From Heterodontus francisci (taxonomy: Eukaryota), in the NCBI RefSeq assembly GCF_036365525.1, contig NW_027140922.1:62001-126000 (forward strand): DNA of 64,000 nucleotides. Direction: 5' to 3'. The translations under genes and the position numbers were made by a program. The notes beneath the pieces were generated by a model. That model did no database searches, was not told where the DNA came from, and was given only the letters and a program-made list of their open reading frames with translations. This document shows, piece by piece, positions 1,953-33,313 of this stretch (the first letter of the stretch is position 1; every line of letters begins with the position of its first letter).

Positions 1953-1970
1953 GGGACAGCAGAGGGGGAT
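1953..1970 (+). promoter_or_regulatory. CTCF-like element downstream of V-0 (degenerate)
   Basis: GGGACAGCAGAGGGGGAT; homologous block recurs after every family-1 V. Confidence 0.35.
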
Positions 1971-2574
1971 CCAGGACCATAGACCGGACAATGGCTTTGA
2001 GAAGGATTTAATGAGAAAACTAATAGAGCAGGAGATCATGCAGATCCAGCTTGATATACATCAACAGGACAAGGACACCCACTCCTTTAGAGAGAGAAAG
2101 AGAGTGTATGTGTGTGAAAGAGAGAGCGAGATCCAGTGAGAGAGAGGAAAAACGACAGGTAGAGTTAAAGAGACTGAGACAGAGAGGGAGACAGAGATAG
2201 AGGCAAAGACAGTGAGACAGCAAGAGACACATAATGAGAGAGAGAGAGAGACACTGAGAGAGAGACGGAGGGAAAGAGAGACTGAGCTAAAGAGCCTGCG
2301 ACAGATAGGAAGATAGATCAAGAGAGAGACAGAGACAGGGAAATAAACTGAAGAGATAACAAGAGTAAGAGAGAGGGAGAGTCAGAGAGAAGGAGGGAAT
2401 GGGAGACATAACCTTAGATACATGAGGGGAGAGAGAGAGAGAGACAGAGAGAGAGTGCAAGAGAGCGGAAGGTAAACTGAGATAGAGATAGATAGAGAGA
2501 GAGAGAGAGAAGCAGAATGACAGCCAATTCAATTCTGATTTGTTGAACTGGGTGAATGGGCGTCTCCAACATTG

Positions 2575-2625
2575 TATCACATCCTAATGCTCTTCATGTT
2601 CCTCCCAATGATTTGTAAAGAGTGG
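2575..2625 (+). promoter_or_regulatory. Family-1 V promoter block (ETS + CCAAT + TGATTTGTAA); copies at ~5635, ~7590, ~9383, ~11677
   Basis: ~50-bp block atcac(a/t)tcctaatgctct..gttcctcccaatgatttgtaaagagt conserved ~75 bp upstream of all five family-1 leader ATGs. Confidence 0.7.
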
Positions 2626-2699
2626 ATTTGGACCCTTACAAGACTCTAAGCTCCTGATCTCACTCCTGTGTCTATTAAGAGAACAGGTTATAGTGAAAG

Positions 2700-3155
2700 A
2701 TGTATCAGTTACTGGGTCTGATAATCCTGTTTCATTGTAAGTGAGTGTGAAATGCAAAAACTATCGTTAATAACTTTCCTCTCTTCTCCCTGTCTCCCTT
2801 TCATTCCCAGAAGTTTCCTGTTTACTGATCTGCTCTTCTCTCCATCTCTCTCCCAGATGTGAACTCACAGACTATCCACCAGACTCCCGCCGCTGTCTCC
2901 AGATTGCGTGGAGAGGCAGTGGAACTGAGGTGCACTGTGGAGGGGATCAGCAGTACCATCTCCATGTACTGGTACAGACAAGAGCCGGGGAAGGAGCCGC
3001 TGTTGATGTTTTACTCCACTACTGCTAACTATGTGGATCCAGAGGGGATGGTGGGCGGTTTCACCGCCGAGAGACCAACTGACTCCCAGTTCAACCTGGA
3101 GTCCTCCAGCCTGCGGGAGAATCACTCGGCCGTGTATTTCTGTGACTGGAGTCCT
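2700..3155 (+). CDS. TRBV: V-1: TCR beta V segment, family 1 (leader 2700-2736, V exon 2857-3155), potentially functional
   Basis: Leader MYQLLGLIILFH, GT at 2737, AG at 2855-2856; spliced ..YVNSQTIHQTP..C23..WYRQ..YFCDWSP, open frame. Confidence 0.92.
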
Positions 3156-3194
3156 CACAGTGACTCAGAGAGATGGAGCAGTTCAACAAAAACC
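3156..3194 (+). other. 23-RSS of V-1 (consensus)
   Basis: CACAGTG + 23 bp + ACAAAAACC. Confidence 0.95.
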
Positions 3195-4320
3195 CCAAAG
3201 GCAACAGGAAACACATGTTTCAGATAAACCCAGACGGTGCTGCATCCTGCTGGATGCTTTTGTCATTGGGAACATGTTTTTCACAAGAAGACAGGGCGGA
3301 TTTAAAGAGAAAGAGATTAGATTTAGAGACAGTGGAAAATTGCGAGATAGAATTTCGAGGAATGAAACCGATATTGAGAAGTTATAGCGATCAAAGTAGT
3401 CTGAACCAGAGAAGAGAAGACTGAAGGATAAACCTTTAGTGTTCTTAGAGAGATTCTGAAAGGGTTTAATGNNNNNNNNNNNNNNNNNNNNNNNNNNNNN
3501 NNNNNNNNNNNNNNNNNNNNNNNNNNNNNNNNNNNNNNNNNNNNNNNNNNNNNNNNNNNNNNNNNNNNNNNNNNNNNNNNNNNNNNNNNNNNNNNNNNNN
3601 NNNNNNNNNNNNNNNNNNNNNNNNNNNNNNNNNNNNNNNNNNNNNNNNNNNNNNNNNNNNNNNNNNNNNNNNNNNNNNNNNNNNNNNNNNNNNNNNNNNN
3701 NNNNNNNNNNNNNNNNNNNNNNNNNNNNNNNNNNNNNNNNNNNNNNNNNNNNNNNNNNNNNNNNNNNNNNNNNNNNNNNNNNNNNNNNNNNNNNNNNNNN
3801 NNNNNNNNNNNNNNNNNNNNNNNNNNAGATAGATAGGTAGNNNNNNNNNNNNNNNNNNNNNNNNNNNNNNNNNNNNNNNNNNNNNNNNNNNNNNNNNNNN
3901 NNNNNNNNNNNNNNNNNNNNNNNNNNNNNNNNNNNNNNNNNNNNNNNNNNNNNNNNNNNNNNNNNNNNNNNNNNNNNNNNNNNNNNNNNNNNNNNNNNNN
4001 NNNNNNNNNNNNNNNNNNNNNNNNNNNNNNNNNNNNNNNNNNNNNNNNNNNNNNNNNNNNNNNNNNNNNNNNNNNNNNNNNNNNNNNNNNNNNNNNNNNN
4101 NNNNNNNNNNNNNNNNNNNNNNNNNNNNNNNNNNNNNNNNNNNNNNNNNNNNNNNNNNNNNNNNNNNNNNNNNNNNNNNNNNNNNNNNNNNNNNNNNNNN
4201 NNNNNNNNNNNNNNNNNNNNNNNNNNNNNNAGGTAGATCGATCGGAAGAGAGATAGATAGGTAAATAGATATACAGACACTGTTGTGGTTTATTCACTGA
4301 CAGTGTTGTCTTTCTCCAAA

Positions 4321-4339
4321 GGGACAGCAGAGGGCGGTG
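4321..4339 (+). promoter_or_regulatory. CTCF-like element downstream of V-1
   Basis: GGGACAGCAGAGGGCGGTG versus consensus TGGCCASYAGRKGGCRSY. Confidence 0.55.
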
Positions 4340-4529
4340 TAGGACCGTGATAAGTATCAGATTATTGATGATGTTTCAATAGGGACTTTGAAACTTGTCT
4401 ATGAACCGCTCCTGATAATTAAATAACTACATCCCTGTTACAGACTGGTGAACTGAACACAAGGTACCGCAGATGCTGGATGGTTTAGGTTCTGGGCGCT
4501 AAGTCACTATATTGGTGCTCGTTGCATTT

Positions 4530-5050: not shown

Positions 5051-5758
5051 TGCAGCCTGAATGCAGGATGTTCCACAATGCTGTCACCCTGTTGCTGTAT
5101 TTGGTCTCTGCAACTAGTCCCACTCCCCCTGCCCTTTCTACATAACACTGCACATTTTCCCTTCAGATAATTATCCAAATTTCCTTTTGAAAGCCACGAT
5201 TGAACCTGCCTCCCCCGCACTCTCAGGTAGTGCATTCCAGATCCTCACCACTCACTGCGTCAAAACGTTTCCTCAGTTCACCTTTGGATCTTTTGCCAAT
5301 TACCTTCAATAAGTGCCCTCTGGTTACCAATACATCAGCCCATGAAACACAGAGACAGAGAGGGTGAATCAGGGAGACATAGAGAGGAAAAACTCAACAT
5401 AAATGAACGGGACAGAGGGAGACAGAGAGAGAAAAATACACACACACACACACACAGATACAGTGAGAAAGAGATTGAAAGAGTGGGAAACATAAAGCTC
5501 GATACATGCAGAGAGAGAGAGAGTGAGGAACAAAGAGTAAGAAAGACAGAGGAAGGCGGATTGAGATAGATAGAGAGAGAGACATTGACAACCTACTCCA
5601 CTCTAACTTGTTGACGTGGGTGTCACCATCTCTGCATCACTTCCTAATGCTCTTCCTGTTCCTCCCAATGATTTGTAAAGAGTGGGTTGGTTATTGACAA
5701 CACTCATCACTCCTGCTCTCTCCCCTTTGCAGATTCAGAAGGCAGCTTAAAGGAAAAG

Positions 5759-6234
5759 ATGTATCTGTTACTGACTCTGATCAACCTGTTTCACCGTAAG
5801 GGATTTTATTGAAACAATAATTATACTTAACATTTCTTTCGTTTTATTTTTCTTTGATTTTCTCTCTCTCTCTCCTCTTTCTCCCCACTGGACTGAATGT
5901 CACTGTTTACTGATCTCCTACTCTCCCTGTCTCTTTCCCAGATGTGAACTCACAGACTATCCACCAGACTCCCGCCGCTCTCTACAAATTTCCTGGGGAG
6001 CAGGTGAAGCTGAAATGCACCGTGGAAGGTACCAGTGACCCTTACATGTACTGGTACAGACAATACCCGGGGAAGGAGCCGCAGTTTATGTTTTACTCCA
6101 CGGGTGCCAATCTCGTATCTCCAGAAGAGGTGGATGGTTTTACCGCCGAGAGACCAAGTAACTCCGAGTTCAACCTGGAGTCCTCCAGCCTGCGGGAAAA
6201 TCACTCGGCCGTGTATTTCTGTGCCTGGAGTCTT
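5759..6234 (+). CDS. TRBV: V-2: TRBV family 1 (leader 5759-5795, V exon 5942-6234); open frame but defective RSS
   Basis: Leader MYLLLTLINLFH, GT 5796, AG 5940-5941; SQTIHQTP..CTVEGTSDPYMYWYRQ..YFCAWSL. Confidence 0.9.
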
Positions 6235-6271
6235 CACCGTGACTCAGAGAGATGGCAGTTCAACAAAAACC
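6235..6271 (+). other. Non-canonical RSS of V-2 (CACCGTG, 21-bp spacer)
   Basis: CACCGTG 6235-6241; spacer 6242-6262 is 2 bp shorter than paralogs; ACAAAAACC 6263-6271. Confidence 0.9.
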
Positions 6272-6571
6272 CCAAAGGCAGCAGGAAACACCTGTGGAGG
6301 ATAAAGGTGCTCGGCGCTGCCTCTTGTTTTTTGTGCAGGGCGATTGTTTTTGTGACGATAAGAAGACAAGTGAGAATAACAGTGAGATAATAAATGTCCA
6401 GGCACTGACGAAGAGACAATGAACGGACCTCATCTGTGCGGTAAAACTTTCGATCTCTCTCTGAATGATTAACAAGGATAACACCAGATCTGAGGTTGTA
6501 ACTATCAGGAAAGATCAACAATAAAACTACTTGAGTTCTTCTGCACTGACACTGAGTTTTCTTCCTCTATA

Positions 6572-6590
6572 GGGTTAACAGAGGGCGCTC
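6572..6590 (+). promoter_or_regulatory. CTCF-like element downstream of V-2 (second degenerate copy at 7350-7368)
   Basis: GGGTTAACAGAGGGCGCTC; 7350 copy GGGACAGCTGAGGACGCTC. Confidence 0.45.
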
Positions 6591-6717
6591 CAGGACCATT
6601 AATACACAATGGACGAGAAAACATTTAATCGGAAAACAGAAAGAGGCAGAGGTCATGCAGCCCTCGAGCTTCATACACAGTGACAGGAGAAGGACATTCA
6701 TCACCTTAAAGAGGGAT

Positions 6718-6749
<32 letters not shown>

Positions 6750-7713: not shown

Positions 7714-8174
7714 ATGTGTCTGTTACTGGCTCTGATCACCCTGTTTCACCGTAAGGCATTTTATTGAAACAATAATTCTACTTAACATTTCTTTAGGTTT
7801 TGTTTTTACTTCTTTCTCTCTCCCACTTTACTGAAATTCCCTGTTTACTGATCTCCTCCTCTCCCTGTCTCTTTCCCAGCTGTGAACTCACAGACTGTCC
7901 ACCAACTCCCGCCGTTGTCTCCAAATTTCCTGGGGAGCAGATGAAGCTGAAATGCACCGTGGATGGCACCAGTAACCCTTACATGTACTGGTACAGACAA
8001 TACCCGGGGACGGAGCCGCAGCTGATGATTTACTCCCTAACTGTACAAAGGGTGAACTCAGAGGGGACACTGGATGGTTTCACCGCCGAGAGACCGACTG
8101 ACTCCGAGTTCAAACTGGACTCCTCCGGCCTGCGGGAGAATCACTCGGCCGTGTATTTCTGTACCTTGAGTCTT
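7714..8174 (+). pseudogene. TRBV: V-3: TRBV family 1 pseudogene (leader 7714-7750, V exon 7880-8174), 1-bp FR1 deletion
   Basis: caccaactccc instead of caccagactccc at ~7904 shifts frame to TGA at 7942-7944; ends YFCTLSL. Confidence 0.9.
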
Positions 8175-8213
8175 CACAGTAATTCAGAAAGGTGGAGCAG
8201 TTCAACAAAAACC
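8175..8213 (+). other. 23-RSS of V-3
   Basis: CACAGTA + 23 bp + ACAAAAACC. Confidence 0.9.
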
Positions 8214-9507
8214 CCAAAGGCAGCAGGAAACACCTGTGGGGGGTAAAACCGTTCGGTGCCTCGACCTCCTGTTCCCTTATGCAGAGTGAAAGTATTACAA
8301 TAAAAAGTGTTGAGCGATGATTGTAGTGACACACTAGATTTACAGGTACTGCGATTAATAAAGGTGTCACGAGATCTCAGAATGTAATTATCAGGAATCA
8401 ATGACAATAATCTGGGTTTTTATGCACTGACACAGTGTTTACCTTCTCCACAGGGACAGCAGAGGTGGATCCAGGCCCATGGAACTGACAATGGCTTTGA
8501 GAAGGATTTAGTGACAACACTGAAAGAGCAGGAGATCATGCAGATCCAGCTTGATACACATGAACAGGACAAGGACACCATTTTGTTAGAGAGAGTAAGA
8601 GTGTGTGTATGTGTGACAGAGAGATCTAGTGAGAGAGAGGAAAAACGACAGATAGAATTGAAGAGACTGAGACAGAGAGGGAGACAGAGATAGAGACAAA
8701 GACAGCGAGGCAGCAAGAGAGACATAATGAGAGTGAGAGAGAAAGGGACTGAGAGAGAAGGAGAGAAAGAGAGACTGAGATAAAGAGCCTGAGACAGATA
8801 GGGAGGCAGAGCTAGAGAGAGACAGAGAAAGAACTAATGAGACAGTAAGAGTGAGAGAGAGGGAGAGTCAGAGAGAAGGAGAGAGTGGGAGACATAACCC
8901 CAGACACATGAGGAGAGAGCGAGACAGAAAGAGAGAGAGCAAGAGNNNNNNNNNNNNNNNNNNNNNNNNNNNNNNNNNNNNNNNNNNNNNNNNNNNNNNN
9001 NNNNNNNNNNNNNNNNNNNNNNNNNNNNNNNNNNNNNNNNNNNNNNNNNNNNNNNNNNNNNNNNNNNNNNNNNNNNNNNNNNNNNNNNNNNNNNNNNNNN
9101 NNNNNNNNNNNNNNNNNNNNNNNNNNNNNNNNNNNNNNNNNNNNNNNNNNNNNNNNNNNNNNNNNNNNNNNNNNNNNNNNNNNNNNNNNNNNNNNNNNNN
9201 NNNNNNNNNNNNNNNNNNNNNNNNNNNNNNNNNNNNNNNNNNNNNNNNNNNNNNNNNNNNNNNNNNNNNNNNNNNNNNNNNNNNNNNNNNNNNNNNNNNN
9301 NNNNNNNNNNNNNNNNNNNNNNNNNNNNNNNNNNNNNNAATTCTGATTTGTTGAACTGGGTGAATGGGCGTCTCCAACATTGTATCACTTCCTAATGCTC
9401 TTCATGTTCCTCCCCATGATTTGTAAAGAGTCTATTTGGACCCTCACAAGACTCTCGGCTCCGGCTTTCACTCCTGTGTCCATTAAGAGAACATGTTGTA
9501 GTGAAAG

Positions 9508-9971
9508 ATGTGTCAGTTACTGGGTCTGATAATCCTGTTTCTTTGTAAGTGAGTGTGAAATACAAAGATTATCGTTAATAACTTTCCTCTCCTCTCCCTG
9601 TCTTCCTTTCATTCCCAGAAATTCCCTGTTTACTGATCTCCTCCTCTCTCCATCTCTCTCCCAGATGTGAACTCACAGACCATCCACCAGATTCCCGCCA
9701 CTGTCTCCAGATTTCCCGCGAAAGGAGTGGGACTGATGTGCACTGTGAAGTAGCATCTCCATGTACTGGTAGCATCTCCATGTAATGGTACAGACAATAC
9801 CCGGGGAAGGAGCCGCTGTTGATGTTTTACTCCAGTACTGCTAACTATGTGGATCCAGAGGGGACGGTGGACGGTTTTACCGCAGAGAAACTGAATAAGT
9901 ACGAGTTCAAACTGGAGTCCTCCAGCCTGCGGGAGAATCACTCGGCTGTGTATTTCTGTGCCTGGAGTCTT
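9508..9971 (+). pseudogene. TRBV: V-4: TRBV family 1 pseudogene (leader 9508-9544, V exon 9665-9971)
   Basis: In-frame TAG at 9751-9753 after C23; CDR1 deletion plus 19-bp tandem duplication 9750-9787; 3' half MFYSSTANYVDPEG..YFCAWSL. Confidence 0.92.
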
Positions 9972-10004
9972 CACAGTGAGAGATGGAGCAGTTCAACAAA
10001 AGCG
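9972..10004 (+). other. Defective RSS of V-4 (17-bp spacer)
   Basis: CACAGTG 9972-9978, 17-bp spacer (6-bp deletion), ACAAAAGCG 9996-10004. Confidence 0.88.
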
Positions 10005-10382
10005 CCAAAGGCAGCAGGAAACACCTGTTTCAGATAAAACCAGGCGGTGCTGCGTCCTGTTTGGTGTTTTTGGCATTGGAAAAGTGTTTTTCACAAGAAG
10101 ACAGGGCGGATTTAAACAGAAGGTGAGAGGTTAGATACAGAAGCACAGGGGAAGTGTGAAATGGACTTTCCAGGAATGATATCAGAACAAAGATAGTTTG
10201 AACATCTTTGCTCCAGAGAGGAGAAGACTGAAGGGTGAAAATTCAGAGTTCTTAGAAAGATTATGAAAGGGTTTAATGTGTGAAGTGAAGATCAGATAGG
10301 TAGGTAGATTGGTCGATAGATAGCTGGTAGGCAGACAGACACTGTTGTGTTTTATTCACTGACAGTGTTGTCTTTCTCCAAA

Positions 10383-10401
10383 GGGACAGCAGAGGGCGGT
10401 G
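10383..10401 (+). promoter_or_regulatory. CTCF-like element downstream of V-4
   Basis: GGGACAGCAGAGGGCGGTG, identical to the 4321 copy. Confidence 0.55.
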
Positions 10402-11800
10402 TCGGACCGTGAAAAGGATCAGATTATTGATGATGTTTCAACAGGGACTTTGAAACTTCTCTATGAACCTCTCCTGATAATTATAGAAATACATCCCGGT
10501 TACAGTCTGGTGAACTGAACACAAGGAACCGCAGATGCTGGATGGTTTAGGTTCTGGGTGCTCTGTCACTATATTGGTGCTCATTGCGTTTCTGGTTTAC
10601 AAATAAATAAGGATGGAAATACTAATCAGGTCAGACAGCCTCTGTGGAGGAGGAAAAATTAACATATCAGGTCATTCAGCAGAACTGGAAGGATTTAGAG
10701 GTCTATCAACTTTTAAGCAGCACAAAGCCAGGGAGAGGGAGAATGGGAGGAATGCAGGAGAGATTTAATAACAAAACTGAGGCTGGTGCAAGACAAAGGG
10801 GATGTTAATTGGTCAAGTAAAGAACAAAAGATGGGTCTAGAGGAGGTGGAAATAGCAGAAACACAATTATTACCAACAAACCTCTGTCCAAATAAACCGG
10901 AGCAGTGGTTATGATCAGAAATTGTTAAACTCACTGTTGAGTTCAGAAAGCTGTCAAGTGTCCAATTGAAAGATTAGGTGCTGTTCTTCGAGTTTCTGTT
11001 GAGCTTCATTGGAGCAGAGAAGGATTTCGAGGACAGAGAGGTCAGGGTGGGAGTGGGAATGAGAATTAAAACTGTCCACTAACCGGGACCTCAGGGTCAC
11101 ACTTGCAGCCCGAATGCAGGGTGTTCCACAATGCTGTCACCCTGTCGCTGTATTTGGTCTCTGCAGCTAGTCCCACTCCTCCTGCCCTTTCGACGTAACA
11201 CTGCACATTTTCCCTTCAGATAATTATCAAATTTCCTTTTGAAAGCCACGATTGAATCTGCCTCCCCCGCACTCTCACGTAGTGCATTCCAGATCCTCAC
11301 CACTCACTGCGTCAAAACGTTTCCTCAGTTCACCTTTGGATCTTTTGCCAATTACCTTCAATAAGTGCCCTCTATTTCTCAATACATCAGCCCATGAAAC
11401 ACAGAGGCAGAGAGGGTGAATCAGGGAGACATAGAGAGGAAAAACTCAACGTAAATGAACAGGACAGAGGGAGACAGAGAGAGAAAAATACACACACACA
11501 CAGATATAGAGAGAAAAAGATTGAAAGAGTGGGAGACATAAAGCTCGATACATGCAGAGAGAGAGAGAGTGAGGAACAAAGAGTAAGAAAGAGAGAGGAA
11601 GGCGGATTGAGATAGAGAGAGAGACATTGACAACCTACTCCACTCTGACATGTTTACCTGGGCGTCACCATCTGTGCATCACTTCCTAATGCTCTTCCTG
11701 TTCGTCCCAATGATTTGTAAAGAGTGGGTTGGCTATTGACAACACTCATCACTCCATCTCTCTCCCCTTTGCTGATTCAGAGGGCAGCTTAAAGTAAAAG

Positions 11801-12277
11801 ATGTATCTGTTACTGACTCTGATCACCCTGTTTCACCGTAAGGCATTTTATTGAAACAATAATTCTCCTTAACATTTCTTTCATTTTATTTTTCTTTGAT
11901 TTTCTCTCTCTCTCCTCTTTCTCCCCACTGGACTGAATGTCGCTATTTATTGATCTCCTCCTCTCCCTGTCTCTTTCCTAGATGTGAACTCACAGACTAT
12001 CCACCAGACTCCCGCCGCTGTCTCCAAATTTTCTGGTGAGCAGGTGAAGCTGAAATGCACCGTGCAGGGCACAAGTAACCCTGACATGTTTTGGTACAGA
12101 CAATACCCGGGGAAGAAGCCGCAGCTGATGTTTTACTCCCGAAGTGTACAAAGCATGAACTCAGAGGGGACGGTGGAGGGTTTCACCGCCGAGAGACCGA
12201 GTAACTCCGAGTTCCACCTCGAGTCCTCCAGCCTGCGGGAGAATCACTCGGCAGTGTATTTCTGTGCCTGGAGTCTT
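11801..12277 (+). CDS. TRBV: V-5: TRBV family 1 (leader 11801-11837, V exon 11982-12277), potentially functional
   Basis: Leader MYLLLTLITLFH, GT/AG intact; SQTIHQTP..CTVQGTSNPDMFWYRQ..YFCAWSL open. Confidence 0.93.
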
Positions 12278-12316
12278 CACAGTGACTCAGAGAGATGGAG
12301 CAGTTCAACAAAAAGC
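12278..12316 (+). other. 23-RSS of V-5
   Basis: CACAGTG + 23 bp + ACAAAAAGC. Confidence 0.93.
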
Positions 12317-13191
12317 CCAAAGGCAGCAGGAAACACCTGTTTCAGATAAAACCAGGCGGTGCTGCGTCCTGTTGGGTGATTTCATCATTGGGAACATGTT
12401 CTTCACAAGAAGACAGTGCAGATTTAAAGAGAAAGTGAGAGGTTAGATTTCGAAGCACCGGGGAATTGCGAATTCGACTTTACAGGAACACAGAGTTTAA
12501 AGCGAACATGATAGTTTGAATATCGGGTTATCTTTGCTCCAGAAAAGAGAAGACTGAAGGGTAAACCTTCAGCGGTCTCAGAGAGCTTCTTAAAGATTTT
12601 AAGATGTGAAGTGAAGTTCAGAAACAACAGCGAGAGAGACAGAGATTGAAAGAGCGATCGAGAGAGAGATACAGAGAGAGATAANNNNNNNNNNNNNNNN
12701 NNNNNNNNNNNNNNNNNNNNNNNNNNNNNNNNNNNNNNNNNNNNNNNNNNNNNNNNNNNNNNNNNNNNNNNNNNNNNNNNNNNNNNNNNNNNNNNNNNNN
12801 NNNNNNNNNNNNNNNNNNNNNNNNNNNNNNNNNNNNNNNNNNNNNNNNNNNNACATAAATAGATAGAGAGGCATTGAGAGATAGATAGAGAGAGAGAGAT
12901 AAAGAGAGAGAAAGAGAGACGGATAGAGAGAGAGAGAGAAATAAATAGAGATGGATAGATATATAGATAGAGAGAGACATAGAGAGATTGATAGATAGAG
13001 AGATAGATAGAGAGAGAGGGAGAAAGAGAGACACGGATAGAGAGAGGGAGAGAGAGACAGAGACAGAGAGAGAGAGATAAAGAGAGGTAGAGAGAGAGAT
13101 AGAGAGAGGGAGAAAGATAGAGAGAGATGGATGGATTGATGAATGGATATTGAAGGTGTGGTTTGATGTCACTGTGTTTTCTTTCTCCAAA

Positions 13192-13210
13192 GGGACAGTA
13201 GAGTGCGCTG
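13192..13210 (+). promoter_or_regulatory. CTCF-like element downstream of V-5
   Basis: GGGACAGTAGAGTGCGCTG in the same conserved block (ttctccaaaggg..). Confidence 0.45.
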
Positions 13211-14599
13211 TTGTACCATTATAAACATCAGAGTCTGGAAGACACTTCAACAGTGACCTGGGAACACAAGGAGTTCATTCATCACCTCGAAAACATTCCG
13301 ACCTTCACTGAGATCATGAAATAAAGACAAGAAATCCTGGAACCACTCAGCGGGTCTGGCAGCATCTGTGGAAAGAGAAGCAGAGTTAACGTTTCGGGTC
13401 AGTGACCCTTCTTTCGGGTCAGTAATCCTTTATTTCACTGAGATCATGACTGATCGATAACTTCCCATCGCTCTCTCTCTCCAACCCTCTCTCTCCCTCT
13501 CTCCATGCCTCTCTTTCTCCATCCCTCTCTCTCCCTCTCTCTCTATCCCTCTCGCTCCCACTCTCCATCCTCTCTCTTCCTGTCTCCATCCCTCTCTCTC
13601 CCTCTCCCTCTCCATCCTTCTCTCACCCTCTCTCCATCCCTCTCTCTCCATCCCTCTCCATCCCTCTCTCTCCTGCACTCTCCATCCCCCTCTTTGCTCC
13701 TCTCCATCCCTCTCTCTTCCTATCTCCATTCCTCTCTCTCCTTCTCTCCCCATCCATCTCTGCCTCTCTCTCCATCACTCTCTCTCCCTCTCTCTTCAAC
13801 CCTCTCTTTCACTCTCGCTACCAAGCTGGTGTAAAATGAGAGAATGCCAATTAACATCCCTGTCTTTTACAGGGCAATGACTGTCTCTCTATCTCGCTCG
13901 TTATTTTTCTACCTACATGACTTTCCCTCGATCTCCCTATATCTCTACCTCTCTCTATAGCTGTCTGTCAACCTGACTGACTCTCTATCTATCTATCTCT
14001 CTACCTGATTATCTAGCTCTCTGTCTCTGTATGTATCAAACTCTATCTTTAGGTGATTACAGTTTGTATGAACTTATTAAACATGTTGCAGTAATGTAAT
14101 AAATGACCGTCTTTTCATAGATTTTCTATATATTGACCAGTAGAAGATGTGGTTTGTCATCAATTATCTATCAAAAACCTCTATGATCTTCAATATCTGT
14201 ATCACATCTACCATTAACCTTCGCTGCTCTAAGGAGAGAAACCCCCAGCTTCTCCAGTCTCTCCACAGTAACTGAAGTCCCTCATCCCTGGTAACAGATG
14301 GTTAATCTCTTTCTAACCTTCACTACACAGAGGCGAACAACTCCCCAATTCACAGGAACTAACTCAGCTCAGAACCATTAACCATCTGAGCGCTGTTTCA
14401 CACTGTTCAAAGGTGAGACCCCTCTCCAGATACCTTCATCTCTGGGACACCTGCCTCCTGACAGCGAGTTCATAAGCTGCTGAAACCTGTTTAGCCACTT
14501 TCATCTTAGACTCGAGTCACATTTGATGTGTTTTTCAAAGAAATTAGCAGATCAGACCAGTGAACAATTTAACCCTTTAACTCCCATTCACCACGGAGG

Positions 14600-15245: not shown

Positions 15246-16080
15246 ATGTTGCATGAAGTTCTCAGTCTAATCTTGATGGCTGCACTCTTCCCACGTAAGT
15301 CAAAGTCAGAAACTGTGTCGAATAATGTATTGTAAAGTCAGCGGTGAATCTGTTCCATAACACTGCTGTGTCAGAGTCTCACTCCAGAACACTTGAGCTC
15401 AAAGTCAAAACTAACACCCCAGGTGTCAGGGCTGAGGGAGTGCTGGACTGTCGCAGGGGCAGTACTGCGGGTGTGCTGCACTGTCGTAGAGGCAGTACTG
15501 AGGGTGTGCTGCACTGTCGCAGAGGCAGTACTGAGGGAGTGCAGCACTGTCACAGAGGCAGTACTGAGGGAGTGCTGCACTGTTGCGGAGGCAGTACTGA
15601 GGGAGTGCCGCACTGTCGCAGAGGCAGTACTGAGGGAGTAACTACATTGGTTGCAAAGCCCTTTCTGATGTCCTGAGGTCCTGAACGGCGATATATTAAT
15701 GTAAGCCCTCTCTTTCTTGTAATGCAGCCCCTGCTCCAATCCATTATTGACTGAAATAATAATCTAATCGATGTTCCGTCCCACAGGAATACTCTCCTCC
15801 TATGTGGAACAGTCACCCTCCATCCTATCGATTTCCGCAGGAGAGTCGACAACACTCAGATGCACGCTGAAGAATACTGCCTATCTTACAATGTACTGGT
15901 ACAGACAACAACCAGACAGGGCACTGGAAGCTCTGTTCTATTCTGCTGGAACACGGTCTGTCACCAATTACACATCCGAGTCATTTAAGGCAGACAGAGC
16001 CAGCAATACACTGTTTACTTTGGCACTGAGAGACGCCGCTCCGTCTCACACCGCTGTCTATTTCTGCGCTTGTAGTATCA
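15246..16080 (+). CDS. TRBV: V-6: TRBV family 2 (leader 15246-15294, V exon 15787-16080), potentially functional
   Basis: Leader MLHEVLSLILMAALFP, GTAAGT donor, AG 15785-15786; SYVEQSP..RCTL..MYWYRQ..YFCACSI. Confidence 0.9.
15430..15640 (+). repeat. 33-bp intronic minisatellite (~6 copies), probably SINE-derived; duplicate ~17678-17885
   Basis: Unit cactgtcgcagaggcagtactgagggagtgctg. Confidence 0.9.
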
Positions 16081-16119
16081 CACAGTGTTTGAGAAAGCGG
16101 ATCCGCAGCTGCAAAAACC
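16081..16119 (+). other. 23-RSS of V-6
   Basis: CACAGTG + 23 bp + GCAAAAACC. Confidence 0.93.
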
Positions 16120-16138: not shown

Positions 16139-16172
16139 TTCAGTGCTCATCTTCAACTGGCAGGGGTCAGCA
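16139..16172 (+). promoter_or_regulatory. Single RSS-proximal CTCF-like element of V-6
   Basis: ttcagtgctcatcttcaaCTGGCAGGGGTCAGCA; core begins 37 bp after the nonamer; monomer of the V-7 array. Confidence 0.55.
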
Positions 16173-17493
16173 GTAGATTGACGCTTATTGTTCATATCTA
16201 TCTGTCCACCTGATTGTTTATCTCTCTGTCTCTCTATCTATCTATCTCTCTACCTGGTTATCTATCTCTCTGTCTCTCTATCTATCTAACTCTATCTTTA
16301 GGTAATTACAGTTTGTATGAACTTATTAAACATACTGCAGTAATGTAATGAATGACCATCTTTTCATAGATTTTCTATATATTGACCAGTAGAAGATGTG
16401 GTTTGTCATCAATTATCTATCAAAATCCTCTATGATCTTCAATATCTGTATCACATCTACCATTAACCTTCTCTGCTCTAAGGGCAGAAACCCCCAGCTT
16501 CTCCAGTCTCTCCACAGTAACTGAAGTCCCTCATCCCTGATACCAGTCTGGTTAATCTCCCTCTAAACTTCACAAAACAGAGGCGAACAACTCCCCAATG
16601 CACAGGAACTAACTCAGCACAGAACCATTAACAATCTGAGCGCTGTTTGACACTGTTCAAAGTGAGACCCCTCTCCAGATAACTTCATCTCTGGGACACC
16701 TGCCTCCTGACAGCGAGTTCAGAAGCTGCTGAAAACTCTTTACCCACTTTCATCTTAGACTCGAGTCACATTTGATGTGTTCTTCAAAGAAACTCGCAGT
16801 TCAGACCAGTGAACAATTTAACCCTTTAACCGCCATTCAGCAAGGAGGTACGGTAGCAGAGCAGTTATGTTACTGGACTAGTAATCCAGAGGCCTGGACT
16901 AATGATCCCCAGACTTGAGTTCAATTCTCACCAGGGCAGAAATTGAATTTAAATTTAATTAAGTAAATAAATAAAATCTGTAATGGAAAGTAAGAGCAAT
17001 TCTGAACATGGAGTGTCGTAAAAACCTAACGTATTCATTGATGACCTTCAGGGAAGGAAATCTGCCATTCTTACCCGGTCTGGCCTATATGTGACTGCAG
17101 ACCCACAGCAATGTGGTTGACTGTTAACTGCCCTCTGATATGGCCCAGCAGGCATTCCCGAAGATAGTTCACCATCAGCTTCTCAGGGGCAATAAGGGAT
17201 GGGCACACTCTCTGGGTATAGAGGGTTGCTTCCCTGAATTCTACTCTATCAAATCCCTTTCTGAAATGTGAACACCTCTATTCAATCTCCCCCTATCCTC
17301 CTGTGTTGTATCATTCTACAACATTGCTATGCAAAGTAGTGGGGTGGAGCAGAGTGTCGCAGTAAGTGACTGCCAATCACAATGACAACCGGATGCTGGG
17401 TATTTAATTGAACACAATATAGAAACCGCCTGCAAGAGTGTTGTTGAAAACTCCACACGTTCACACATCGAGTTAGTATCGAATGAAGAAATC

Positions 17494-18327
17494 ATGTTGC
17501 ATGAAGTTCTCTGTCTAATCTTGATGCCTGCCCTGTTCCCACGTAAGTCAAAGTCAGAAACAGTGTCGAATAATGTTTTGTAATGTCAGCGGTGATTCTG
17601 TCCGGAACACTCCTGTGTCAGAGTCTCACTCCAGAGCACTTCAGCTCAAAGTCAAGGCTGACAAACCACATGTCAGGACTGAGGGAGTGCTGCACTGTCG
17701 CAGAGGCAGTACTGAGGGAGTGCTGCACTGTCACAGAGGCAGTACTGAGGGAGTGCTGCACTGTCGCAGAGGCAGTACTGAGTGAGTTCTGCACTGTCGC
17801 AGAGGCAGTACTGAGGGACTGCTGCACTGTCGCAGAGGCAGTACTGAGGGAGTGCTGCACTGTCGAATAGGCAGTACTGACGGAGTAACTGCATTTGTTG
17901 CAAAGCACTTTCTGATGTCCGGAGGTCCTGAACGGCGCTATATTAATGTAAGCCCTTTCTTTCTTGCAATGCAGCTCCTGCTCCAATCCATTATTGACTG
18001 AAATAATAATCTAATCGATGTTCCATTCCACAGGAGTAGTCTCCTCCTATATGGAACAGTCACCCTCTATCCTATCGATTGCAGCAGGAGAGTCGACAAC
18101 ACTCAGATGCACGCTGACCAATACTGACTATTCATATATGTACTTGTACAGACAACATCCAGACAGGGCACTGGAAGCTCTGTTCTATTCTGCTACAGAA
18201 GGGTCTGTTACCAATTACACGTCCGAGTCATTTAAGGCAGTCAGAGCCAGCGATACACTGTTTACTTTGGCACTGAGAGACGCCGCTCCATCTCACACCG
18301 CTGTCTATTTCTGCGCTTGTAGTATCG
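17494..18327 (+). CDS. TRBV: V-7: TRBV family 2 (leader 17494-17542, V exon 18034-18327); open frame but Trp41->Leu (ORF-class)
   Basis: MYLYRQ (TTG at 18144-18146) instead of MYWYRQ; ends YFCACSI. Confidence 0.88.
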
Positions 18328-18366
18328 CACAGTGCTTGAGAAAGCGGATCCGCAGCTGCAAAAACC
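18328..18366 (+). other. 23-RSS of V-7
   Basis: CACAGTG + 23 bp + GCAAAAACC. Confidence 0.93.
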
Positions 18367-18385
18367 TGTAGTGGATGAACGGGAG

Positions 18386-18745
18386 TTCAGTGCTCACCTT
18401 CCACTGGCAGGGGGCAGCAGTGGATTGAATCTCGGTGCTCATCTTCCCCCGGCAGGGGGCAGCAGTAGATTAAATCTCAGTGCTCATCATCCACCGGCAG
18501 GGGTCAGCAGTAGATTGAATCTCAGTGCTCATCTTCCACCAGCAGGGGGCAGCAGTGGATTGAATCTCAGTGCTCATCATCCACCGGCAGGGGGCAGCAG
18601 TGGATTGAATCTCTGTGCTCATCTTCCACCGACAGGGGGCGGCAGTACATTGAATCTCAGTGCTCATCTTCCACCGACAGGGGGCGGCAGTACATTGAAT
18701 CTCAGTGCTTATCTTCGACCGACAGGGGGCAGCAGTAGACTGACT
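18386..18745 (+). repeat. 45-bp minisatellite x8, each unit carrying a CTCF-like motif
   Basis: Cores at 18404, 18449, 18494, 18539 (CCAGCAGGGGGCAGCA), 18584, 18629, 18674, 18719. Confidence 0.9.
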
Positions 18746-21165: not shown

Positions 21166-21182
21166 TCCTTCACCCTCCAGAG

Positions 21183-21366
21183 ATGGCTGTGTCTCAGCTC
21201 TGGGTTGTGTTGTTGGTGTTAACGGGTAAGGAGGTGTCTGAACTGTGAGGTTACAATGATGTAGATGTGTCTCGGATTCTCAGTCTCTGTCTGTCTTTGT
21301 CTCTTTCCTTCTCCAACTGTATTTCTTTCTCTGTTGATAACGATATAGACATTGTCCCTGGGTTAA

Positions 21367-21397
<31 letters not shown>

Positions 21398-21705
21398 GTT
21401 TTGCAGATGTGGGGGCCGTGTTGATCCAACAGACTCCCGCTTCCATATCCCATTCCCCAGGCTCTCCAGTCAGGATCGAGTGTATTTACACTGAAGCAAC
21501 AGCTAGCTCTGTTTTCTACTGGTACCAATGGCATCTGGACCGTGAGCCCGAGAACCTTTTCTATTCCTATGCTGCTAGAACGGTCAACCCCTCCGGAGAG
21601 GTGGACGGTTTCACCGCCAGGAGACCCGACAACACCCATTTTTACCTGGAGTCCTCCAGCCTGTGGGAGAATCAATCAGCCGTGTATTACTGTGCCTGTA
21701 GTCTG
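21183..21705 (+). CDS. TRBV: V-8: TRBV family 3 (leader 21183-21225, V exon 21407-21705), potentially functional
   Basis: Leader MAVSQLWVVLLVLT, GT 21226, AG 21405-21406; VLIQQTP..IECIY..FYWYQW..YYCACSL. Confidence 0.9.
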
Positions 21706-21744
21706 CACAGTGACTCAGAAAGGCGCCGGACTTCAGCAAAAACT
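21706..21744 (+). other. 23-RSS of V-8
   Basis: CACAGTG + 23 bp + GCAAAAACT. Confidence 0.92.
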
Positions 21745-23106
21745 CTAAACATTGACAGAGCTCACTTATGGGAGATAGACCTGTCTATCTGGGGTGTCAT
21801 TCTATCACTCTGACTATCTGTCAGTTTCTATGTCTACTGTTGAATGAACTGGCTCTTTGACAGAGTTGTCTAACTAGTTCCCATTCACTGACTAGTTCTC
21901 CATTGCACTAATAAATCTTCCCTTCATCTACTTCTCCAATTGACATCTGGAAGTTACTATTGGATGGTCTTCCACCGTCCTTTCAGTCAGTGCCCTCAAC
22001 ATGATAACAATTCACTGAGGAGAAAGATTCCACTCATATCCCACTCTGGTTCCTTTCCCAATTACCTTCAATTCTTGGTTCCTGGTTTATCGACCCTCCT
22101 GACTGTCGATACCACCCTCTGGATACAGTTTCTCTATCAAGACACTTCTGACCACGTCTTTCAAATCTCCGCTTACCCTCATTACTCTAATGGACACAAG
22201 TCCATACAAATAGGAAATGGTTGATCTTGGAACCTTTAATCATGTCTCTGATGATTCATACAGTGCAAAGGCGAGACACCTCTCCAGATCCGTCTCTGAC
22301 TGGAACACCTGCCTCCAGACGGCGGCTTCAGCATCTGTTCAAAACTGTTAATCCACTTGTCTCTCAGTCTGTCGGTGTCTTTTGAAGAATTTTGACAATG
22401 ACTGCAGTTCAGTGTGGTGAAGAACTTAACCCTATAACTCCCGTTTAGCAGAAGGGGGGAAATGAAACTGTCTTGGCCCTGAAACAAGGCAGCAGGTTGA
22501 CGGGTCTTATTGGATCATAGAATCATGAGGGACAAATCCAGGCCATTCAGCCCATCGATCCTGGCCTAGCTGTTTGAAAGAGCGACCTGCTCCCATCTCT
22601 CTTCAACTTGCCCTATCAACAGATTCTTCTATTCCTTTCTCACTCATGTATTTATTCAGCTCCCCTTTAACTGCATCGTCTCTATTCGACCTCAACCCAT
22701 TCCATTTGGTCTGTAATTCCACATTCTCACCGCTCCCTGGGTTAAAGAACCTCCTCCTGAATTCCCAATTGGATTTATTAAGGACTATCTTACAATTATG
22801 ATCCCTGGTATTCACTTCCCTGTCCAATTACTCCCACTCCCTGTTCTTTCTGATTAACCCTGCACTTGATCTTGCAGCTTGTCTGTCTCCTTCCCTGCAT
22901 TACAACAGTGACTGCACTTCAAAATGTATTTGACTGGTTGAGGCTGGAGTGAAGCAGAGAGCTGTCGGGCCGAAATGCGCCGATCTGTGCATTAACTTCC
23001 ATCTAGTTCTGTGCCACAAGCGCCAACACGAGTCGAGTAGGAGAATATAACTGATGACAGAAACAGGTTCAGCTTCTGACACTGAAAGGCCTGCAGAATC
23101 AGTGCT

Positions 23107-23138
23107 TGCAGTTGCATTGGAGCCACTAGGTGCCAGTG
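23107..23138 (+). promoter_or_regulatory. CTCF-like element downstream of V-8
   Basis: TGCAGT upstream module + CCACTAGGTGCCAGTG (23123-23138). Confidence 0.55.
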
Positions 23139-23784
23139 TTACTCCACTGTTGCCGCTGCCAAGAACATGCTCACACAGAGTAAGCTTCCCCACAGCAGCT
23201 CCACAGGTCAACTTGGCTGCTTCTGAAATGTTTCACTTCTCAACTATTTCACACAAAATATTCCGGCAATGAAAAAAAAACTCAATGATAGATGAGATAG
23301 ATGAGCTTTTAGTCTGATCGTTTTGGGGGCATTAAGTGACATTTATATCATTCCACCCTTGGAATATTTGCGCCCAAATGCCAATTTGTAGATTTCCAGG
23401 TTCCATTTTACAATTACATTGTCCCAGGTGTTTGTAGGAAACTAGGAGAGAGCCTGAATTTTCATCGTGACTTTAGCACAATTCCCACATCTATCGTGCC
23501 AAGTGTAAAGTAACATTTTTCCCACATGCTCCCTGTTTCCAGGTGGAATAACGTGAGATCTGGTGCTCACTTCATGTGATCAAGTGAGAGACAGTTTTCA
23601 GAACAGAAGGCTTCACACTGACATGTTGTGATATCCACAACCCGCCGGTGGAGGGGCTGTATTAATCAGGTCTGTTCATTGATGAGGTGAAACTCAGTAT
23701 GTTGAGGTTTTAAGAGCGGGTTCGCTTTTGCAGAACATTGCAAAATAATAAATTAACCCGGAAGCTGGAGAGAGTTCACCTTCT

Positions 23785-24385
23785 TAGGCAGTTCCCCGGG
23801 GTTGAGGTTGACTTGCTTCCACTCCGGTTCAATGGGTTCTGAGATGGCTGATGAGTCCAGTGTATGATCTGCAGACTCTGTCACATGAGGTGCAGGTGGT
23901 GCTTGTAGGATCAGGCAGGTGAGTAGTTTGCAGGTTTGTGCGCTCCCTCCGATGCCTCGGCCTTACCTCTGCATGTTCCTGAAGTTCCTCGAGGTGTCCA
24001 ATGCCTTCCTGTATGTCCTTTCTCCATCTGGGCTTGGTCAGGAGCCAGGGTCTCCAAGGAGTCGACGGGGATGTTTCATCTCTCCAGGGATGCTGTGAGG
24101 ACACCTCTAAAGCCTTTCCGCTGTCCTCCTGGGAGTCTCCTGCCACGACCAAGTTCTGAGTAGAACAGTTGCTTTGGGGAGTCTGGTGGCAGGAATGTGA
24201 ATGACATGTCCCAGCCAGTGGAGCTGGTGTGGGGTGTTTCGCGCCCTGACACGAGGCAGGTTGGTTTGGGAGAGCACGATGCTGTTGGACCACCTGTCTT
24301 GCCACTGGAGTTGGAGGATAATGCGGAGGCACCTCTGGTGTTACTTCTCCTGTGCTTTGAGGTGTCCACTGTAGGTTCTCCAAGG
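23785..24385 (-). mobile_element. RTE-clade LINE 3' fragment; duplicate ~28350-28955
   Basis: C-terminal zinc finger CTSCDRVCRSYTGLISHLRTH and LPKQLFYSEL..GGQRK-like motifs. Confidence 0.8.
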
Positions 24386-25659
24386 TAAGGTCAATGTGGA
24401 GATGTATTTATGAGCAGTGACTGATGGGACATGCAGTTCAGAGCTATCCACTGTCTAGACAAAGAATCACACACAGACAGACCTCAAACTCACGTAATAT
24501 TACCAAGGAGTCAAAAAGCAGGGCCTCATCCACAGTTTTATCTTCATGTACCTGGGTTCCACACTATGACTGTACACATTTTTGGTCTCCAACCTCCTTG
24601 GTTAAAACACACTGGGTGCACTGTGAAAATTTCAGGTCTCCTCATACCTTGGTTAGACTTCATTTGGAGAACTGTGCACTGTTCCGTTCTCATTATACAT
24701 TGGTTAGATCACAACTGGAGCACTATGCACAGTTCTGGCGTCTATATACATTGGTAAGACCACATTTAGATCATGGTATCATTATGCATAGCAGTGAAGA
24801 TCGAACAGGCTGGGGTCCTTCTCCAGAAATGAGGGGTTCCCAGATAAGAAGTCTTTAATATTATTAATAGGTTTGATAGGATAGACGTAGAGAAGATATT
24901 TTCACTTGAGGCCAAATACCAGATCTATAAGGTATAAAATACTCAGTAAAAATCCAAATTCAGGACAAACTTCATTACCCAGAGATTGGTGAGAATGGGG
25001 AACCCACAACCATAGGCAGTGGTGGAGGTAAATAGTATTCAGTGGGAAACTAGTAGACATACGAGGCAGAAAGGATTGACAGGAGATGCTGAGAGGATGA
25101 GATAAAGAGGGATGAAAGGATGTATCTGTGGAACATTAGCACCTGTATAGATCCGTTCACCTGATGCTGTGTTCTATATTGTCTGCAATTCTATATAGTC
25201 AACGTCAGTATCTGAAAGAGGGGAGAAAGTTGGAAAGCCGATCTGGAACTTCCCAAAGGAGTTCTGCAGCCAATGAAGTGCTTCTGTTGAATTACAGGCA
25301 TGTTGGTCTTTGTTGCAAGGGGGATGGGAGAACAAGAATAAGGAAGTCGTGTTACACTTGCATTGGGTCTTGGTGAGAACACACCTGGAATACTGTGTGC
25401 ACAGATTTGAACAGGGCCCCGAATGATCGGGCTGCAGATGTCAATGACACTGAACTGCAATTCCAGAACGCGATTACCAGGCGTCAAACATTGGTCCCTC
25501 CCCGGAAATGAAAGAAAACTGGGTCCCGCCTATCTGAATGATAAAGTGATGGAGAAGGAAGCTGTGAATTTCAGTCAGTGCCGAGAACTTTGAGATACTC
25601 TACAATAAAAGTGCTCAGTCATTTCATTTAAAACCACACGGATCCTTCACCCTCCAGAG

Positions 25660-26287
25660 ATGTCTTTGTCTCAGCTCTGGGTTGTGTTGTTGGTGTTAAC
25701 GGGTAAGGAGGTGTCTGAACTGTGAGGTTCCAATGATGTACATGTGTCTCTGCTTCTCAGTCTCTGTCTCTCTTTGTCTCTCTCCTTCTCCCTTTATATT
25801 TCTTTCTCTGTCTCTCATTCTCTCTCTCTATCTCTGCCTTTATCTCTGTCTCTATTTCTAACTGGTCCCCACCGCTCTCTCTCTCTCTCTGTCTGCCCAC
25901 TTCTACCTCTTCTTGTTGATAACAATATAGACATTGTCCCTGGTTTTATCTCTCTCTTTCTCTCTCTCTCTCCCTCTCTGTTTTACAGATGTGGTGGCCG
26001 TGTTGATCCAACAGACTCCCACTTCCATATCTCATTCCCCAGGCACTCTAGTCAGGATCGAGTGTATTTACACTGAAGCAACAGCTAGCTCTGTTTTCTA
26101 CTGGTACCAATGGCATCTGGACCGTGAGCCCGAGAACCTTTTCTATTCCTACCCCGCCGGAACGGTCACCCCCTCCGGTGAGGTGGACGGTTTCACCGCC
26201 AGGAGACCCGACAACACCCATTTTTACCTGGAGTCCTCCAGCCTGTTGGCGAATCAATCAGCCGTGTATTACTGTGCCTGGAGTCAG
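25660..26287 (+). CDS. TRBV: V-9: TRBV family 3 (leader 25660-25702, V exon 25989-26287), potentially functional
   Basis: Leader MSLSQLWVVLLVLT; open V exon ending YYCAWSQ; C23/W41/C104 present. Confidence 0.9.
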
Positions 26288-26326
26288 CACAGTGACTCCG
26301 AAAGGCGCCGGAGTTCAGCAAAAACT
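26288..26326 (+). other. 23-RSS of V-9
   Basis: CACAGTG + 23 bp + GCAAAAACT. Confidence 0.92.
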
Positions 26327-27690
26327 CTAAACATTGACAGAGCTCACTTGTGGGAGATAGACCTGTCTATCTGGGCTGTCATTCTATCACTCTGACTATC
26401 TGTCAGTTTCTATGTCTACTGTTGAATGAACTGGCTCTTTGACAGAGTTGTCTAACTAGTTCCCATTCACTGACTAGTTCTCCATTGCACTAATAAATCT
26501 CCCCTTCATCTACTTCTCCAATTGACATCTGGAAGTTACTATTGGATGGTCTTCCACCGCCCTTTCAGTCAGTGTCCTCCACATCATAACAATTCACTGA
26601 GGAGAAAGATTCCACTCATCTCCCACTCTGGTTCCTTTCCCAATTACCTTCAATTCTTGGTTCCTGGTTTATCGACCCTCCTGACAGTAGATACGACCCT
26701 CTTGATACAGTTTCTCTATCAAGACACTTCTGACCACGTCTTTCAAATCTCCCCTTATCCTCATTACTCTAATGGACACAAGTCCATACAAATAGGAAAT
26801 GGTTGATCTTGGAACCTTTAATCATGTCTCTGATGATTCATACAGTGCAAAGGCGAGAAACCTCTCCAGATCCGTCTCTGACTGGAACACCTGCCTCCAG
26901 ACGGCGGCTTCAGCATCTGTTCAAAACTGTTAACCCACTTGTCTCTCAGTCTGTCGGTGTCTTTTGAAGAATTTTCACAATGACTGGAGTTCAGTGTGGT
27001 GAAGAACTTAACCCTTTAACTCCCGTTTAGCGCAAGGGGGGGAAATGAAACTGTCTTGACCCTGAAACAAGGCAGCAGGTTGACGGCTCTTATTGGATCA
27101 TAGAATCATGAGGGACAAATCCAGGGTATTCAGCCCATCGAACCTGGCCTAGCTGTTTGAAAGAGCGACCTCCTCCCATCTCTCTTCATCTTACCCTATC
27201 AACAGATTCTTCTATTACTTTCTCACTCATGTATTTATTCAGCTCCCCTTTAACTGCATCGTCTCTATTCGACCTCAACCCATTCCATTTGGTCTGTAAT
27301 TCCACATTCTCACCGCTCCCTGGATTAAAGAACCTCCTCCTGAATTCCCAATTGGATTTATTAAGGACTACCTTACATTTATGATCCCTGGTTTTCATCT
27401 TCCCTGTCCAATTACTCCCACTCCCTGTTCTTTCTGAATAACCCTGCACTTGATCTTGCAGCTTGTCTGTCTCCTTCCTACCATTACAACAGTGACTGCA
27501 TTTCAAAATATATTTGACTGGTTGAGGCTGGAGTGAAGCAGAGAGCTGTCGGGCCGAATGGCGCCGATCTGTGCATTAGCTTCCATCGACTTCTGTGCCA
27601 CAAGCGCCAACACGAGTCGAGTAGAAGAATATAACTAATGACTGAAACAGGTTCAGGGTCTGACACTGAAAGGCCTGCAGAATCGGTGCT

Positions 27691-27723
27691 TGCAGTTACA
27701 CCTGGAGCCACTAGGTGTCGGTG
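27691..27723 (+). promoter_or_regulatory. CTCF element with upstream module downstream of V-9
   Basis: TGCAGTTAC-N5-GAG-CCACTAGGTGTCGGTG (core 27708-27723). Confidence 0.65.

Positions 27724-33262: not shown

Positions 33263-33313
<51 letters not shown>

Follow-up and report, generated by a model that had tools for sequence, protein, structure and literature searches.

In the mouse Tcrb locus, 18 co-oriented CTCF sites on the variable (V) side converge on three sites on the diversity-joining (D-J) side, and scrambling of a site downstream of Trbv1 lowered Trbv1 rearrangement 6-fold (PMC10772921); the bound V-side sites of mouse Igh and Tcrb all point to D, J and the constant (C) genes (PMC5859386; PMC10772921). 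At the immunoglobulin loci for heavy chains (IGH), sites associated with the recombination signal sequence (RSS) of the heavy-chain V (VH) genes are 17-19 bp from the RSS in mouse and 19 or 48 bp from it in human (PMC6746451). A CTCF orientation code is seen at the borders of topologically associating domains (TADs) in skate (PMC10115646) and a convergent-site code in the loops of lamprey (10.64898/2026.10.19.759930), suggesting that the loop machinery was available. In the literature that we searched, mostly without subscription papers, no description was found of CTCF sites in antigen-receptor loci of sharks or other cartilaginous fish, and the functional CTCF work found for such loci was all mammalian. 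Here we describe a stretch of 64,000 nucleotides (the window) of Heterodontus francisci (assembly GCF_036365525.1, contig NW_027140922.1, positions 62,001 to 126,000, forward strand), the first 31 kb of which comprise 11 V pieces of three families, all on the + strand and each closing with a 23-type RSS, and show that this V cluster is enriched in CTCF motifs.

The shark cluster resembles mouse Tcrb in the receptor chain concerned, in having sites among the V segments and a site downstream of a V, and in having fewer strong sites than V segments (PMC10772921, PMC5859386); in both, the V-region sites are all in V-gene orientation (14 of 14 strong matches here, in four independent contexts). The two differ in that binding, the convergent sites 5'PC, CBE1 and CBE3, loops and an effect on usage have been shown in the mouse, whereas the shark sites are predicted from motifs, and in that the shark has an eightfold array of 45-bp units directly behind an RSS, an arrangement not described for mouse Tcrb in the available parts of these papers. 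Like the VH sites of mouse and human IGH, the family-2 sites of the shark lie at a fixed distance behind the nonamer, are family-specific and are oriented with V transcription, and all eight array units fit the mouse VH consensus at up to three mismatches, human VH sites being also clustered (PMC6746451). Unlike the IGH sites, they lie at 37 bp, are confined to one family and are weak in the RSS-nearest copies, and, unlike in mouse 7183/Q52, the presence of a site does not track intact V segments (PMC6746451). The skate TAD borders show that the vertebrate CTCF motif and convergent-site logic are valid in a cartilaginous fish; however, in the part available, those data concern motifs within peaks of ATAC (assay for transposase-accessible chromatin) in fin tissue and no antigen-receptor locus (PMC10115646).

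A first-pass annotation of this DNA had likened its sites to the V-side CTCF orientation of mammalian Igh and Tcr loci, a likeness that is apt in view of the mouse data (PMC5859386, PMC10772921). In our view it is rather probable that CTCF occupies the strong sites in thymocytes and that these sites halt or anchor cohesin loops by which V segments are brought near D-J-C.

CTCF motifs in the V cluster

Both strands of the window were scanned with a CTCF count matrix modelled on MA0139.1, and matches of 12 bits or more were taken as strong. All 14 strong matches were on the + strand and within positions 1-33,000, and there were none in 33,001-64,000. At 8 bits, the V region had 20 matches on the + strand and 3 on the - strand, and the right half had one and two, respectively. 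When duplicates were grouped, the strong matches fell into four contexts of unrelated sequence:

Context 1: 4321 and 10383, + strand, family-1 block
Context 2: 45-bp array behind V8, + strand, 7 of 8 units strong
Context 3: 22309, 26891 and 31427, + strand, family-3 site A, 603 bp from the heptamer
Context 4: 23120 and 27705, + strand, family-3 site B, about 1415 bp from the heptamer

With column-permuted matrices, which leave the duplication structure of the DNA intact, 3 of 600 runs at 12 bits reached four contexts or more, in no case with all of them on the same strand, and none of 600 did so at 15 bits. Dinucleotide shuffles (500-nt tiles, 200 runs) gave at most 6 matches at 12 bits and 3 at 15 bits, versus 14 and 11 observed; 8 of the 200 runs had four or more matches at 12 bits, none had as many at 15 bits, and the means of 0.6 matches on the + strand and 0.8 on the - strand showed no + bias. 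A check independent of this matrix was made with the published mouse VH consensus, which, at up to three mismatches, matched ten times on the + strand (4322, 10384 and the eight array units) and once on the - strand. The enrichment of CTCF motifs in the V cluster is real and statistically clear, exceeding both nulls. The strand bias, for which the first-pass annotation had proposed the same kind of scan, is weak evidence of selection when judged on four contexts.

V segments of the cluster

The V pieces, numbered from left to right, are as follows (RSS positions are heptamer starts):

V1, family 1: 1571-1693, + strand, 3' fragment of a TCR-beta V segment (TRBV) with 23-RSS, heptamer at 1655
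V2, family 1: 2700-3194, + strand, leader 2700-2736, exon 2857-3155, open frame, 23-RSS at 3156
V3, family 1: 5759-6271, + strand, open frame, damaged RSS (CACCGTG, 21-nt spacer), heptamer at 6235
V4, family 1: 7714-8213, + strand, pseudogene by frameshift, RSS at 8175
V5, family 1: 9508-10004, + strand, pseudogene with stops, a 19-nt duplication and a shortened RSS spacer, heptamer at 9972
V6, family 1: 11801-12316, + strand, intact, leader intron 11838-11981 (GT..AG), heptamer at 12278
V7, family 2: 15246-16119, + strand, intact, exon 15787-16080 open, 23-RSS at 16081, leader limits read from the sequence
V8, family 2: 17494-18366, + strand, open frame, conserved Trp changed to Leu, 23-RSS at 18328
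V9, family 3: 21183-21744, + strand, intact, 23-RSS at 21706
V10, family 3: 25660-26326, + strand, intact, 23-RSS at 26288
V11, family 3 (V-10 of the first-pass annotation): 30210-30862, + strand, open frame, first Cys lost, 23-RSS at 30824

A leader exon, a V exon and an RSS with a 23-bp spacer, as in TRBV, were found in all except V3 and V5, which have shortened spacers, and the fragment V1; V2, V6, V7, V9 and V10 are apparently intact. Family 2 shares 67% identity (V7) with nurse shark T cell receptor (TCR) beta (ADW95896.1) and 75% with an epaulette shark model, and family 1 shares 57-64% with the V of a bamboo shark V-J-C model, which is auto-named kappa-like and was taken as beta from its constant region. 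Among solved structures, human TCR beta chains ranked 7th and 8th for family 1, after multi-domain constructs, and family 3 was placed as TRBV because it is homologous to family 1 at the DNA level. The protein searches yielded 2 and 1 matches with single V queries and 41 with a profile. By these sequence comparisons, the V pieces are identified as TRBV of a cartilaginous fish.

Of the 12 sequencing runs listed, none carried a ChIP label and 8 had no library label. Read evidence came from four runs mapped on 9340-12680, a segment holding one of the seven family-1 blocks, with runs X5, X7 and X8 taken as RNA by guess. The V exons in this segment were covered by X5, and the V6 leader intron was skipped at its GT..AG limits in contigs of X5 and X8. 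In the same segment, the best DNA runs of the listed organism contained 0.35-0.38 of the sampled words, and some parts of the X5 contigs were about 6% divergent. This may point to low cover, or to strong variation between alleles or paralogues of the V cluster.

A site on the + strand within 1.5 kb of the RSS was found for 6 of the 11 V pieces at 12 bits, 7 at 10 bits and 9 at 8 bits. The earlier suggestion that nearly every V has a downstream site was an overstatement, and one site per V is unsupported. Most strong sites lie 375-1380 bp from a nonamer, and the sites of families 1 and 3 overall lie 242-1381 bp away.

Sites of families 3 and 2

The first-pass annotation had placed family-1 19-mers at 1953, 4321, 6572, 7350, 8453, 10383 and 13192, family-2 cores at 16157 and from 18404 onward, and family-3 TGCAGT motifs at 23107 and 27691, and all of these positions were correct; it had overlooked family-3 site A at 22309, 26891 and 31427 and a homologue of site B at 172. 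The cores at 1953, 6572, 7350, 8453 and 16154 scored below 9 bits. The family-3 features are:

Site A: 22309-22327, + strand, 12.8 bits, 603 bp from the heptamer, within a block of about 220 bp common to family 2
Site A: 26891-26909, + strand, 12.8 bits
Site A: 31427-31445, + strand, 17.2 bits, behind the last V
Site B: 23106-23138, + strand, upstream motif 8/10, linker 4, core 13.8 bits (core at 23120, TGCAGT at 23107)
Site B: 27690-27723, + strand, upstream motif 8/10, linker 5, core 17.3 bits (core at 27705, TGCAGT at 27691), best two-part site
Site-B homologue: 152-190, + strand, upstream motif 8/10, linker 6, core at 172 of 11.3 bits
Family-3 duplication: 25910-32225, + strand, 93.5% identical to 21327-27679, ending just before site B of the last unit

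The CTCF upstream motif, which is present in 13-15% of sites, is separated from the core by a linker of typically 5 bp, range 2-7 (PMC12885311). We found this motif (ZF9-11), with a linker of 2-7 bp, at site B and at 172 but not at site A, and, judged by eye, the distant homologue at 172 retains both parts of site B. On these sequence features, site B is the most convincing of the candidate CTCF sites. The last unit had been described as breaking off at about 32220, just before its site; homology indeed ends at 32225, before site B, but V11 keeps site A (31427, 17.2 bits). The homology to the site-B block extends over 60-330, at the left edge of the window, suggesting that a family-3-like V may lie just beyond that edge. 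Site A lies within the non-coding block of about 220 bp, which occurs about 600 bp behind the RSS in families 2 and 3 (14372-14588, 16644-16842, 22230-22450, 26812-27031 and 31348-31576) and shares 68% identity between the two families, versus 52% for their V exons.

The family-2 features are:

Single 45-bp unit: 16140-16184, + strand, behind the V7 RSS, with a weak core (7.0 bits) 37 bp from the nonamer
Tandem array, 45 bp x 7.9: 18387-18743, + strand, behind the V8 RSS, cores of 10.7, 17.0, 15.5, 22.4, 19.2, 16.6, 16.6 and 17.4 bits

In both V segments of this family the core is at a fixed 37 bp from the nonamer, and RSS-side placement is limited to family 2. The RSS-nearest copies are weak (7.0 and 10.7 bits) because the most conserved C is replaced by T. 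The upstream motif is partial (4-6/10). Both products of CpG decay are present in the V8 array, which suggests that the array is methylated in the germline. A 33-bp tandem repeat of about six copies (15432-15639 and 17674-17886) lies in the leader intron of both family-2 V segments.

Position of D-J-C and comparison with other elasmobranchs

By standard convention, a forward-sense CTCF motif faces partners to its right. With two elasmobranch J-C regions as queries, no tblastn match to J or C better than E=0.14 was obtained in the window, and no FGxG J motif was found there. A Pfam scan of 29 of the 163 open reading frames to the right of 32.2 kb revealed one reverse-transcriptase fragment, one weak DUF5736 match and no Ig domain. 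There was no minus-strand match of at least 12 bits in 33-64 kb. In RefSeq-type models of bamboo shark, epaulette shark, smooth-hound and sawfish, a V resembling family 1 or family 2 is joined to J and C, and such gene models are normally colinear on the genome, so J-C likely lies downstream on the V strand for family-1-like and family-2-like V segments.

Some protein models of other species read through the RSS. One of them, whale shark XP_048476706.1, continues across a family-2-like RSS. The best + window in its back-translation is at 38 nt from the nonamer, where the present DNA has 37; the score of this window was matched in 0 of 1000 shuffles at that offset and in 62 of 1000 anywhere, and the model is compatible with a family-2 site at the same offset. 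A compatible + window was also present in each of the read-through models from other V families (score reached by 25 of 300 shuffles for skate, 13 of 300 for sevengill and 27 of 300 for horn shark, with 15 of 300 for whale shark), and in the horn shark model a window on the minus strand was just as good. Two family-1-like models of bamboo shark had lower scores (141 and 27 of 300 shuffles) and no notable CTCF window near the RSS. The six models combined, which were picked by eye and may be spliced, gave P of about 0.006. We take these windows as hints only of cross-species support.

The family-1 block

The family-1 cores are partly degenerate, as the first-pass annotation had observed:

1953-1971, + strand, weak, 8.6 bits
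4321-4339, + strand, strong, 18.3 bits, with an N gap between the core and the V2 RSS
6572-6590, + strand, weak, 6.0 bits
7350-7368, + strand, weak, 8.9 bits, 364 bp upstream of the V4 leader, the sole copy without AG
8453-8471, + strand, weak, 4.9 bits
10383-10401, + strand, strong, 18.3 bits, recent duplicate of 4321, behind the pseudogene V5
13192-13210, + strand, intermediate, 11.4 bits

The two strong cores represent one recent duplicate (90% identity over 2.1 kb). The next leader follows each block at 364-2056 bp, and the blocks can equally be read as lying upstream of the next V.

It had been pointed out earlier that this block also resembles a branchpoint and acceptor, and the resemblance was borne out: a branch-like YTRAY 24-29 nt upstream was found in 7 of 7 copies, a pyrimidine tract (0.63-0.79) in 7 of 7 and AG at the core edge in 6 of 7. 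The block may have been retained to serve as a 3' splice site in non-coding germline V transcripts, or may be a relic exon, its likeness to CTCF being incidental, an alternative that we regard as possible though doubtful and that agrees with the conservation of the upstream part, which equals that of the core, and with the absence of the CTCF upstream motif from the block (4-5/10). On the other hand, among the 10 joints listed for the four runs, with 402 loose ends unlisted, none ended at 10383. In addition, an X5 contig (depth 136) loses its match at 12340 and regains it at 10362, the exact alignment limits of the V4 unit, and fits unspliced read-through of a V4-type unit across the tract and AG, weak evidence in that it comes from a run taken as RNA by guess and one of seven copies. 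A splice acceptor would take out family 1 only and leave the CTCF sites of families 2 and 3 in place.

The family-1 core starts like a TRBD1 motif, and its identity as a D segment was considered and rejected, as no flanking 12/23 RSS pair was found. A conserved promoter motif, an Ets-like site adjoining an element that resembles a cAMP response element, lies upstream of family-1 leaders at 5633, 7588 and 11675, and is reminiscent of the TRBV promoter decamer. Directly after the nonamer, all six family-1 V segments carry a conserved flank of about 25 nt (1694-1718, 3195-3219, 6272-6296, 8214-8238, 10005-10029 and 12317-12341) that includes an Ets-like GGAA and, in five of the six, also an E-box some 18 bp past a full-length RSS; the bamboo shark read-through model P0120 retains this flank (KAAGNTC), which may be an RSS-side regulatory element other than CTCF.

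Possible roles of the sites

In the reading that we prefer, the strong + sites would be occupied by CTCF in thymocytes and would form the left-hand anchors for cohesin loops, which would reach partner sites at a D-J-C end predicted to lie to the right and would help V segments to be used, with a possible effect on the repertoire. A few ancestral elements (the family-1 block, the family-2 RSS-side unit and family-3 sites A and B) were copied with the V cassettes, decayed in some units and were amplified eightfold behind V8. This pattern agrees better with co-oriented anchors that belong to the locus as a whole, as in mouse Tcrb, than with an obligatory site for each V.

Several observations weigh against loop anchoring. 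The scanning matrix was not the database copy, and the human VH and general consensus strings found only the array units, on the + strand. Just 6 of the 11 V segments have a strong site, and two of these are the defective V5 and V11, yet the intact V7 has a site of 7.0 bits. Between sub-types, the family-1 core (conservation 0.77) is no better kept than the 20 nt upstream (0.72-0.73), and no purifying selection on it was found, substitutions costing score like random ones (P=0.51). The family-2 copies of the site-A block lack a CTCF core (-3.3 bits) though the block is retained at 68%, so the block has been retained for more than CTCF or was transferred between units. No D, J or C was found in the window, not even in the 31 kb that follow the V cluster. 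For the strand bias, with four contexts, P is 0.06 in a one-sided and 0.125 in a two-sided test. Finally, the cross-species evidence comes from proteins only, each model alone giving P=0.04-0.09 or worse and being possibly spliced, and the window of whale shark was not equalled in any of 13 other read-through tails.

Co-orientation in four contexts is weak evidence of strand selection and may be partly passive, because each site was copied with its V cassette. The motifs may even be bindable while their shared direction is wholly passive, a few sites having been caught in V duplication units and taking their strand from the V genes, with little effect on V choice. This we regard as somewhat unlikely, although the sites do occupy fixed places in the duplicated units, independent contexts number just four, the family-1 copies decay as if neutral and, among the 11 V pieces, no link between site strength and V intactness is evident. 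It does not readily account for four strong independent contexts in 33 kb with none in the next 31 kb, beyond both nulls, for the retention of both motif parts of site B in a distant homologue, or for the compatibility of the family-2 site with the same offset in whale shark.

The strong sites may instead act locally, as RSS-side stops that hold a V before RAG, as in mouse proximal VH, or as insulators between the V promoters and the repeat-rich DNA on the right. The family-2 unit at 37 bp from the nonamer, comparable with 17-19 bp in mouse and 19 or 48 bp in human (PMC6746451), would suit the former, and sites with an upstream motif and tandem copies, typical of insulators (PMC12885311), the latter, as would the position of the family-1 blocks upstream of the next leader. 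However, the RSS-nearest family-2 copies are the weakest and most strong sites lie hundreds of base pairs or more from a nonamer, and we consider a local role unlikely; it overlaps with loop anchoring and the two are not mutually exclusive. That the matches arose by chance, or are genome-wide repeats unrelated to the locus, is very improbable: a matrix match is not binding, but both nulls were exceeded, the repeat-rich right half has no strong match, and the bin with block 10383 had depth 0 in runs X6, X7 and X8, versus hundreds to thousands in repeat bins.

If the sites are bound as loop anchors, the loop-based folding that lets distant V segments compete would predate the split between sharks and bony vertebrates. 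We tentatively suggest, with less confidence than for anchoring itself, that in jawed vertebrates CTCF/cohesin-guided V selection may go back as far as V(D)J recombination itself, with Tcrb-type anchors and an IGH-type RSS-side site conserved between shark orders, and with V usage tuned by gain, decay and tandem amplification of sites, as in the V8 array. This would extend a known mammalian design and not introduce a new one, and would be fairly expected given the skate CTCF code. Natural contrasts are offered by V7, with one weak unit, and V8, with seven strong ones, and by family-1 V segments with strong and with decayed copies.

DNA to the right of the V cluster

Two repeat-rich stretches, 38340-42560 and 50760-54200, are related by a long segmental duplication, seen by reading and with approximate limits. 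A LINE-type (long interspersed nuclear element) reverse-transcriptase fragment lies at 43490-43999 on the - strand (RVT_1, E=4e-5, a match that falls short of the curated cut-off). Just past the V cluster, at 32990-33475, three short exon-like pieces without a Pfam match close in GT donors and are possibly 5' exons of a neighbouring gene.

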